Assembly (NCBI GenBank): GCA_964016885.1
Contig: OZ024743.1
Coordinates: 226,176,001-226,240,000, forward strand
Length of the DNA: 64,000 bases
Reading direction: 5' to 3'
Source of the DNA: Eledone cirrhosa
Taxonomy: Eukaryota
Part shown: positions 295-2,346 of the stretch, in pieces
How the letters are laid out: the number at the start of each line of letters is the position of its first letter
Position numbering within the stretch: the first letter of the stretch is position 1
Translations under genes and position numbers: made by a program
Notes under the pieces: model-generated
Databases searched by the model: none
Told to the model about the DNA's origin: nothing
The model's input: only the letters and a program-made list of their open reading frames with translations

Positions 295-444
295 ATATAT
301 ATATATATATATATATATATATATATATATATATATATATATATATATATATATATATATATATAAATATATATATATATATATATATATATATATATAT
401 ATATATATATATATATATATATATATATATATATATATATATAT
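295..444. repeat. (TA)n microsatellite, one of dozens of (TA)n/(CA)n/(TC)n/(TACA)n/(TCTA)n tracts
   Basis: Direct dinucleotide repeat. Confidence 0.99.
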
Positions 445-694
445 GAAAGACGTAAAATAAGAAAATTTTAAAAAATTAAAAATTAACTTACTTACTCTTA
501 ATACCACCCCACTCCCAACTGACTAACCTCAGTGTCACGTGATTGATTCTTTAGAATACACCACTGACCAGAGGCAGTGAACTTTTTCAGTGCTATGGAA
601 TTTAGTCCCCGCTAGCTTATTACATCCACTGAATTATTATTTTTATATGAGTTCCTAGTGTCCGCGCATTGCCTGGGAACTTAGCTGAGGATAG

Positions 695-776
695 ACTCCC
701 TGATGACGTAATGAATTCTCGATAGTTACATTGTGCAACTATATTTATCCCATTACAGAAACTAATTAGTTGGAGT
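695..776 (+). ncRNA. Type I hammerhead, family A copy 1
   Basis: ACTCC-CTGATGA-cGTAATG...CATTACa-GAAA-CTAATTAG-T-T-GGAGT. Confidence 0.8.
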
Positions 777-1224
777 GAAAATTTTAGTAAGTTAATTTTA
801 AATTTTTTTAAATTTTCTTATTTTACGTCTTTCATATAATTGTTCTGCATCCCCCTGCATTGAACCACCTAGGTACTTTGACATAACTTATATATTTACT
901 AGTATTAGTGTACATCTGTACACATATGTTGGTAGATGTATTAATTCTATATATTTATCTCCAAATTATTTGTTGAGCAAATTGCAAAATCTACTGCTAA
1001 TTCATAGTAGTAGTAGTAGGCTTTGTCATAATACCACCCCACTCCTAACTGACTAACCTCAGTGTCACGTGATTGATTCTTTAGAATACACCACTAACCA
1101 GAGGCAGTGAACTTTTTCAGTGCTATGGAATTTAGTCCCCGCTAGCTTATTACATCCACTGAATTATTATTTTTATATGAGTTCCTAGTGTCCGCGCATT
1201 GCCTGGGAACTTAGCTGAGAATAG

Positions 1225-1306
1225 ACTCCCTGATGACGTAATGAATTCTCGATAGTTACATTGTGTAACTATATTTATCCCATTACAGAAACTAATTAGT
1301 TGGAGT
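1225..1306 (+). ncRNA. Type I hammerhead, family A copy 2
   Basis: Same core; inner hairpin atagttaca-ttg-tgtaactat. Confidence 0.8.
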
Positions 1307-1767
1307 GAAAATTTTAGTAAGTAAGTTAATTTTTAATTTTTTAAAAATTTTTCTTATTTTACGTCTTTCATATAATTGTTCTGCATCCCCCTGCATTGAA
1401 CCACCTAGGTACTATGACATAACTTATGTATTTGCTAGCATTAATGTACATCTGTACTCATATGTTGTTAGATATACTAATTCTCTATATTTATCTCCAA
1501 ATTATTTATTTGTTGAGAAAACCTGCCAAATCCACTACTAATTCATTGGTGTGGTAGTAGGCTTTTGTCATCTTACCAACCCACTCCTTCCGACTAGCCT
1601 CAGTGTCACGTGACTGATTCTTTAGAATCTACCATTTGACCAGAGACAGCGAACTTTTTCAGTGCATGGAATTTAGTCCCCGCTAGCTGTTCCATTCACC
1701 GAATTATTATTATTTTTATATGAGTCCCTAGTGTCCGCGCATTGCCTGGAGACTTAGCTGAGAATAG

Positions 1768-1849
1768 ACTCCCTGATGACGTAATGAATTCTCGATGGTT
1801 ACATTACGTAACTATCTTTATCCCATTACAGAAACTAATTAGTTGGAGT
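1768..1849 (+). ncRNA. Type I hammerhead, family A copy 3
   Basis: Same core; inner hairpin gatggttac/gtaactatc keeps pairing via G-U. Confidence 0.8.
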
Positions 1850-2346
1850 GAAAATTTTAGTAAGTAAGTTAATTTTTAATTTTTTTTTAAATTTTCTTAT
1901 TTTACGTCTTTCATATATATATATATATATTTATTTATTTATTTATATAAAAGTAAGAGCGAGAATATATATATATATATATACACCAGTTCAGTAAAAT
2001 GATTAAACTTCATATTACTATTAAATATATATTAAGTGAAATTCTTTAAATTATTAAATTCATTGTGAATCTATTTTAGGTGGGTCCTTTAGAGAGAGAT
2101 AAGACATGATTAAACATTCATCTTTAAACCTAACAATGAATGGCCAAATTGTTTCCTAAAATATAAAATCCTATTAGTCAACAAACCTCTTCTCACTCAT
2201 ATTTATATATACACGTATCTAAAAGATTCTCACTACTATTCAATTCAAAATAATTGTGATGAAAATGTATTTCAGCATTCATTATAACATAAATATTATT
2301 ATTATCAATATCTAGAATAATGTTATATATAAGTTATATATATTAA

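Follow-up and report, generated by a model that had tools for sequence, protein, structure and literature searches.

In the window, the whole 64,000-nt stretch of Eledone cirrhosa DNA that was analysed, a non-coding tandem repeat, in the following named family A, lies between two (TA)n tracts. The left tract (295–443), a portion of the target microsatellite, is followed on the minus strand by a short inverted arm of 52 nt (444–495; unit positions ~15–64), the outward end of which is site A (see below). Then come, on the plus strand, a 5′-truncated partial unit of subfamily Y (496–771; unit positions 255–530), a predicted monomer of 530 nt from cut to cut, also subfamily Y (772–1301), a second predicted monomer of 543 nt, mostly subfamily O (1302–1844), and a terminal piece that runs from the cut to end site A (1845–1913), behind which the right (TA)n tract begins (1914–1930). 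Both monomers contain a "tail", delimited by the two positions at which genomic copies end: in monomer 1 it extends from site A (834) to site B (948) and includes a hairpin before B (835–948, plus strand), and in monomer 2, with site A at 1370 and site B at ~1486, it occupies 1371–1486 (plus strand). The insertion ends ~64–69 nt behind the cut and not at the cut.

A sequence-only reading of this DNA had claimed 2.7 head-to-tail non-coding units with one type I hammerhead each, an inverted fragment and flanking (TA)n. The units were borne out as 2.65 (496–1913) with spacings of 530 and 543 nt, the fragment (444–~495) is the reverse complement of the unit's first ~15–64 nt (95–97%), and (TA)n is present on both sides (295–444 and from 1914). 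The copy is also protein-free, as had been said: the longest ATG open reading frame has 43 codons, circularised monomers included.

The three hammerheads (695–776, 1225–1306 and 1768–1849, all plus strand) fold as claimed at CTGATGA 700, 1230 and 1773, with predicted cuts after 771, 1301 and 1844. In hammerhead 1 a stem I of 5 bp (695–699/772–776) encloses the core (700–706), an unpaired C (707), a stem II of 6 bp (708–713/751–756) with an inner hairpin, an unpaired A (757), GAAA (758–761) and the palindromic stem III (761–770). The cut triplet is GUU. Through the unpaired C after CUGAUGA and the unpaired A before GAAA, stem II, which has a branched loop and is ~50 nt long overall, is flanked by single extra bases. 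Stem III is a perfect 10-nt palindrome with a computed stability of +1.5 kcal/mol as hairpin and −9.0 kcal/mol as duplex.

Owing to the extra C and the extra A, stem II is not placed directly between A9 and G12 as in a canonical hammerhead core, and the Rfam hammerhead models gave no match to it, neither at gathering threshold nor at E ≤ 10. The features of the minimal, dimeric hammerheads of Penelope-like elements (PLEs) are all found, namely an extra base after A9, G10.1–C11.1, a helix I of 4–5 bp and a palindromic helix III. Family A resembles the minimal PLE hammerheads of PMC4209133 in the extra base between A9 and G10.1, the conserved G10.1–C11.1 pair, the short helix I (5 bp here), the long helix II and the palindromic helix III suiting dimers. 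It differs from them in having a second extra base, the A between C11.1 and G12, which amounts to a C·A mismatch closing stem II, and in the branching of loop II. A stem III that is palindromic and stable as duplex fits the dimer mode of Penelope hammerheads (PMC4209133). Other hammerheads of the same genome have U·U at the base of stem II, where family A has its extra bases. A U·U mismatch at this position permits hammerhead cleavage (PMC3088659); of C·A at the base of stem II no mention was found in a literature search or in the accessible text of PMC3088659.

The core pattern has 8,250 matches genome-wide and none in a reversed control, so the motif is not due to chance. A natural variant would thereby be added to the known hammerhead cores, one that the standard models overlook at 8,250 sites. 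The extra A is replaced by another base in just 35 matches of the genome pattern search, and among 95 loci that were not picked by their core the extra C is present in 94 and the extra A in 93. Stem II is 96% paired in 13 distinct hand-picked copies, with double changes at two of the six pairs; the copies are related, which inflates the shuffle test. Five self-consistent types of stem II dominate 220 cores, and compensatory changes in this stem are found across subfamilies up to ~20% apart. Selection acts on the hammerhead fold. From its sequence the ribozyme is judged to be active with fair confidence. A search for an ancestral hammerhead with a short stem yielded 48 matches, which by eye are nearly all deletion derivatives.

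In the genome, a monomer query had 2,433 candidate matches, of which 40 were scored, and an exact 27-mer occurs 928 times. For the analysis of copies, 154 distinct stretches (939 kb overall; 55 with flanks of 1.5 kb only) were assembled from the 30 best matches, from 59 plus 40 loci taken in chromosome order from pattern lists and from 25 loci of a subfamily 20% away, after removal of six duplicate stretches. The units belong to several subfamilies, are spaced 521–571 nt from cut to cut, and have a low GC content (33–35%); the two monomers of the window copy fold compactly as circles (z = −4.8 and −4.7; 30 shuffles). At least two tandem hammerheads are present in 28 of 99 position-sampled stretches, the maximum being six. 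An array of six units is located at L119 (3494–6915), the units being 0.2–1.7% apart from each other and 3% from the terminal piece; this array probably expanded locally after insertion.

With its dispersed, GC-poor, non-coding head-to-tail units, a hammerhead fold in at least two consecutive units and a length within the reported range, family A is, by the genomic definition and as read from sequence, a non-LTR retrozyme with a variant hammerhead core. The earlier description as a dispersed non-coding tandem element with type I hammerheads and Penelope-type integration is supported by the genome copies and their end sites. That its monomers are unusually long was overstated: 530 nt does exceed the 170–400 nt given in PMC7229834, but lies within the 51–972 bp reported for vertebrate consensus units (10.64898/2026.07.22.740005). 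The sequence-only reading did not include the two fixed end sites with their A+B pairing, the link to the Hydra clade, the variant core or the atypical, chimeric nature of this copy. Family A shares with the animal non-LTR retrozymes described in these two sources the non-coding tandem units with one type I hammerhead each, the low GC content, the dispersal with mostly few units per locus and the occurrence alongside Penelope-like elements. It differs from them in its variant core with the branched 50-nt stem II, in that no pLTR homologue was found and in that its ends are mapped to two fixed sites. A literature search found no report on family A and no mapping of retrozyme ends; nor was the latter found in the main text of PMC7229834 and 10.64898/2026.07.22.740005, the supplements of which may hold more.

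Two fixed sites serve as the outward ends of the copies: A, ~64 nt behind the cut, and B, ~177 nt behind it. Both coincide with a short word of the unit that contains TA or CT, and the tail between them is ~114 nt long. A microsatellite adjoins 282 of 315 outer edges. Among the 79 tail-out pairs of which both ends could be typed, 76 were A+B, three A+A and none B+B (A+B plus A+A in the three samples: 45+1, 13+1 and 18+1); 24 more pairs with a damaged end were left untyped. Locus L217, parsed as A+A, has A and B as its outer ends, and at the untyped L149 both are A. In single arms either site occurs (22 B, 13 A), and independent choice would therefore predict A+B in only about half of the pairs.

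Penelope insertions are characterized by a tail at one end together with a truncated arm in inverted orientation (PMC8557442), and the tail is the region between two internal start sites of reverse transcription (PMC11167929). Family A shows the inverted 5′-truncated arm, the tail at one end, the microsatellite target and ends downstream of the cut, as do Penelope-like elements, from which it differs in having no ORF and a tail of ~114 nt rather than 30–40 bp (PMC8557442; PMC11167929). Two further differences concern the Penelope-like element PAc as studied in vitro: at both sites of family A there is a short TA/CT homology between template and target, whereas PAc primed without homology, and pairing is strictly one A with one B, whereas PAc showed no difference between strands in start site (PMC11167929). 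MRC1 and other non-autonomous elements of Chlamys are likewise of Penelope type and inserted in multicopy head-to-tail form; they generally resemble an autonomous family at their 3′ end (PMC8557442), whereas family A showed no such resemblance to the sampled Neptune-, Nematis- and Hydra-type ends and has a hammerhead. Family A is very probably a non-autonomous element mobilised by a Penelope-type enzyme. The A+B rule would explain why Penelope tails are present at one end only.

At site B the ends carry an additional mark. Where the internal B site of the locus itself is CTCT, 25 of 30 loci have 3 to 31 CT repeats at their terminal B end; where the template is different, (CT)≥3 was found at B in 3 of 25 loci. 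Such repeats are present in 1 of 118 internal copies and in none of 108 cases after A ends. The simplest cause is reiterative priming at B, which adds (CT)n, although later replication slippage may also have produced the repeats. A pre-existing compound (TA)n(GA)n target was rejected as source since a GA run is present on the far side in just 3 of 20 loci. Microsatellites of the compound (CT)n(TA)n type may have one of their origins in family A.

The cut site is read through in 26 of 38 conditioned arms. Because arms extend across the cut from priming points 64 or 177 nt behind it, the template must have been continuous there, either as a circle or as a multimer left uncut. Within one locus, repeated segments differ by a median of 2.3% in the same arm (n = 89) and of 3.1% when inverted (n = 76), as compared with ~7% between loci and 1.6–2.2% to the nearest other locus. 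Rare alleles are shared within loci at 22 of 13,080 and 38 of 13,590 sites versus 13 of 40,852 for the nearest other loci, i.e., per site five to nine times as often (L119 left out). This closeness and the shared rare alleles indicate that both arms and all units usually descend from a single lineage of units, which is what rolling-circle copying would produce; duplication or conversion at the locus could contribute to the sharing. Of 156 5′ ends, centred on the cut, 20 lie at +5 to +18, in an AT-rich palindromic tract, and none at +1 to +4; a second peak (14) is at the B hairpin. The clustering near the cut, first apparent as 19 of 95 ends in unit positions 1–25, is not used as fossil evidence of cleavage. 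On the whole, a circular intermediate is, in our estimate, slightly favoured.

The sequence-only reading had asked whether the unit is ever attached to a Penelope ORF. None of the 154 stretches shows it as the pLTR of a coding element: what follows site B is in every case the next unit, never an ORF, and a reverse transcriptase-GIY-YIG ORF as in autonomous elements is absent from family A. Penelope protein matches are present in 68 of the 154 stretches, 33 of them having Hydra-type matches. The candidate attachments at L065, L193, L241, L018 and L094 turned out to be separate insertions or internal fragments. A family-A profile detected no homology at the ends of the sampled Neptune-, Nematis- or Hydra-type elements, many Penelope families of the genome being outside the sample.

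This genome is rich in Penelope families. One of them, very young and with intact 713-aa frames, has motifs that fit the Hydra clade, the assignment being made from motifs rather than phylogeny: by eye, the ORF at locus L283 shows DKT, a CxCX5C linker, CxxC and CxH, no CCHH, and RWR instead of RWK; Pfam gave no match to it. The protein search yielded 62,526 Hydra-type candidates with many copies 99–100% identical and several intact 713-aa frames, which points to a very recent and very large expansion. Its target is (TA)n, its tail ~90 nt, and its ends are A+B in four of four fully typed pairs (seven untyped). The hammerhead-like motif of this family has A in place of U4. Family A thus has in common with Hydra-clade PLEs the (TA)n target (PMC8557442) and with the Hydra-type elements of its own genome the A/B ends, the long tail (~80–90 nt) and the extra bases flanking stem II; Hydra-clade PLEs differ in encoding a reverse transcriptase-endonuclease, and no sequence common to them and family A was detected.

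Thirty-three family-A edges lack a microsatellite; four of these correspond to Hydra ends, and for the library's Neptune and Nematis ends there was no match among them. In L084, L089 and L135 a family-A arm ending at A is joined to a Hydra B end without (TA)n in between. In L084 the A arm stands head to head with a truncated ORF of a second Hydra family that ends at its B site, in L135 it is joined to the tail of this second family, and in L089 the other arm crosses from family A into the tail and B end of the first Hydra family. L139 is doubtful as a fourth case. All of these chimeras follow the A+B rule, across two RNAs. Deletion between neighbouring insertions could mimic such chimeras, and a helper from the Hydra clade is therefore regarded as likely only.

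From these findings we propose that family A is a non-coding hammerhead tandem repeat retrotransposed in trans by a Penelope-like, probably Hydra-clade, reverse transcriptase-endonuclease, the template likely being circular or multimeric RNA; as a whole we consider this reading quite probable. Loci with at least two units would be transcribed and the RNA cut by the hammerheads, probably as dimers via the 10-nt palindromic stem III. The monomers would then be ligated into circles, or else uncut multimers would serve as template. By analogy with the enzymology in PMC11167929, the enzyme would nick (TA)n and begin reverse transcription inside the RNA at A or B. Both target ends would be extended, presumably by a dimeric enzyme, one from A and the other from B, and the two cDNAs would join head to head. 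Priming at B may stutter on CUCU and so add (CT)n. Against this reading stand the non-canonical core, the weakness of stem III in the monomer, the cleavage in vitro of only one of nine Xenopus retrozyme dimers (10.64898/2026.07.22.740005), the small number (three) of Hydra chimeras, the lack of homology to any sampled Hydra, Neptune or Nematis end, the finding that no copy begins at the first four bases behind the cut, and the presence of tandem hammerheads in only 28 of the 99 sampled stretches. A bolder version, which we put forward tentatively, is that a viroid-like circular RNA of 530 nt with a new hammerhead core variant is written in by a dimeric Hydra-clade enzyme that primes the two target strands from two different fixed sites on the RNA, one half loading its own RNA and the other the retrozyme, and that a telomerase-like stutter at B seeds (CT)n at thousands of loci.

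The same Penelope-type mobilisation could start from linear, uncut multimers, the hammerhead being slow or protein-dependent, no stable circle being formed and the tandems being rebuilt by template jumps. Reading through the cut site and the lack of copies beginning exactly at it agree with this scheme, as do the non-canonical core and the observations that cleavage is dispensable for insertion of a Poseidon element in vitro and that no PAc reads ended at the cut (PMC11167929). Against it stand the rare alleles that the units of one arm have in common and a core and stems that stay conserved, compensatory changes included, across ~20% divergence; moreover, the invertebrate retrozymes so far tested yielded circles (PMC7229834). 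We regard linear multimers as a serious but less probable alternative. Another scheme differs from the proposed one in the enzyme, which would come from a Neptune- or Nematis-type element. These families abound, insert into (TA)n and possess tails, and in their hammerheads stem II has the same extra bases. This also speaks against the Hydra link in so far as Neptune-like families of this genome share target and tails. One Neptune family ends with TTTCA followed by (TA)n like site A. The Neptune and Nematis ends of the library, however, were matched by none of the 33 microsatellite-free edges, four of which match Hydra ends, and one Neptune family has A+A pairs (in a query-biased sample), which makes this source rather unlikely.

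The copies could also be pLTR remnants of a rare coding Penelope element absent from the sample. Xenopus retrozymes do match pLTRs (10.64898/2026.07.22.740005), tail and inversion are Penelope traits, and 154 stretches, 55 of them with 1.5-kb flanks, are a small share of thousands of loci; but behind site B there is always the next unit, several subfamilies keep units of 521–571 nt, the ends of the sampled coding elements contain no match to the family-A profile and the short-stem relatives are nearly all deletion derivatives, so that we consider this origin improbable. Least probable by far is a satellite or MITE-like repeat that spread at the DNA level with the hammerhead as a relic. It could account for the near-identical units of L119 and for the identical outward ends of the window copy, which resemble terminal inverted repeats, but such ends are the exception (3 of 79), the 5′ ends are variably truncated and inverted, and stem II covaries. 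The end statistics largely refute it.

The proposed reading, mobilisation by a Penelope-like enzyme in trans, bears on a known kind of element, the non-LTR retrozyme, for the integration of which family A offers unusually direct genomic evidence. An enzyme mobilising animal retrozymes has been proposed and not yet demonstrated (PMC7229834; 10.64898/2026.07.22.740005). Family A points to a candidate clade for this enzyme, locates two start sites exactly and yields a rule for the two strands (one A, one B); the in vitro system of PMC11167929 would allow these to be tested.

The window copy itself is one of the rare A+A cases among tail-out pairs. Its two monomers are 9% apart, 496–1301 belonging to subfamily Y and most of 1302–1844 to subfamily O, with the switch within 1274–1414 and probably, by one informative site, within 1389–1414. 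Besides two separate insertions in locus L114, it is the only same-arm chimera in 89 same-strand pairs. Both the A+A ends and the subfamily chimera would follow if the template had been switched, or if a Y insertion (A+B) had later fused with an O insertion next to it in the same tract; one of these two events has probably taken place. Ligation of two different monomers at the cut is disfavoured, the one informative site placing the switch in the tail. If transcribed, the copy would yield two different monomers.

The window contains further elements of this type. Between (TA)n tracts at 2596–3381 lies, by eye, a 5′-truncated remnant of the young Hydra-clade element, composed of an inverted B arm and an arm ending at the Hydra A site. 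A second tandem hammerhead family, flanked by (TA)n, is found at ~3390–4067 (minus strand) and 56915–57713 (plus strand). It has a 422-nt unit with the core CTGACGA, U·U at stem II, a palindromic stem III and an end hairpin like the B hairpin of family A; in L117 a copy in sense orientation is joined to the upstream side of a family-A arm. Yet another tandem hammerhead family, with 459-nt spacing, a stem II of ~50 nt and U·U at its base, was seen in L235 (6199 and 6658). At 54417–55596 and 56596–56787 short tail-out pieces represent the 3′ end of a second Hydra-type family; their outward ends, too, are of two kinds.

On the minus strand at ~7395–8450 there is a GIY-YIG Penelope remnant, presumably Nematis-like, which ends in (TA)n, has a hammerhead at ~7570 and is interrupted by a 32-nt minisatellite (8464–10130). 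At ~12985–15670, also on the minus strand, lies a broken Neptune-like Penelope element, the family of which has a hammerhead with a U3/A8 core variant and ends with TTTCA and then (TA)n like site A. A solitary hammerhead-like motif is present at 50679–50723, one repeat in the window may resemble an octopus SINE, and 27746–29697, 35545–45099 and 59324–63915 contain, by eye, several fragments of LINE-type reverse transcriptase elements.
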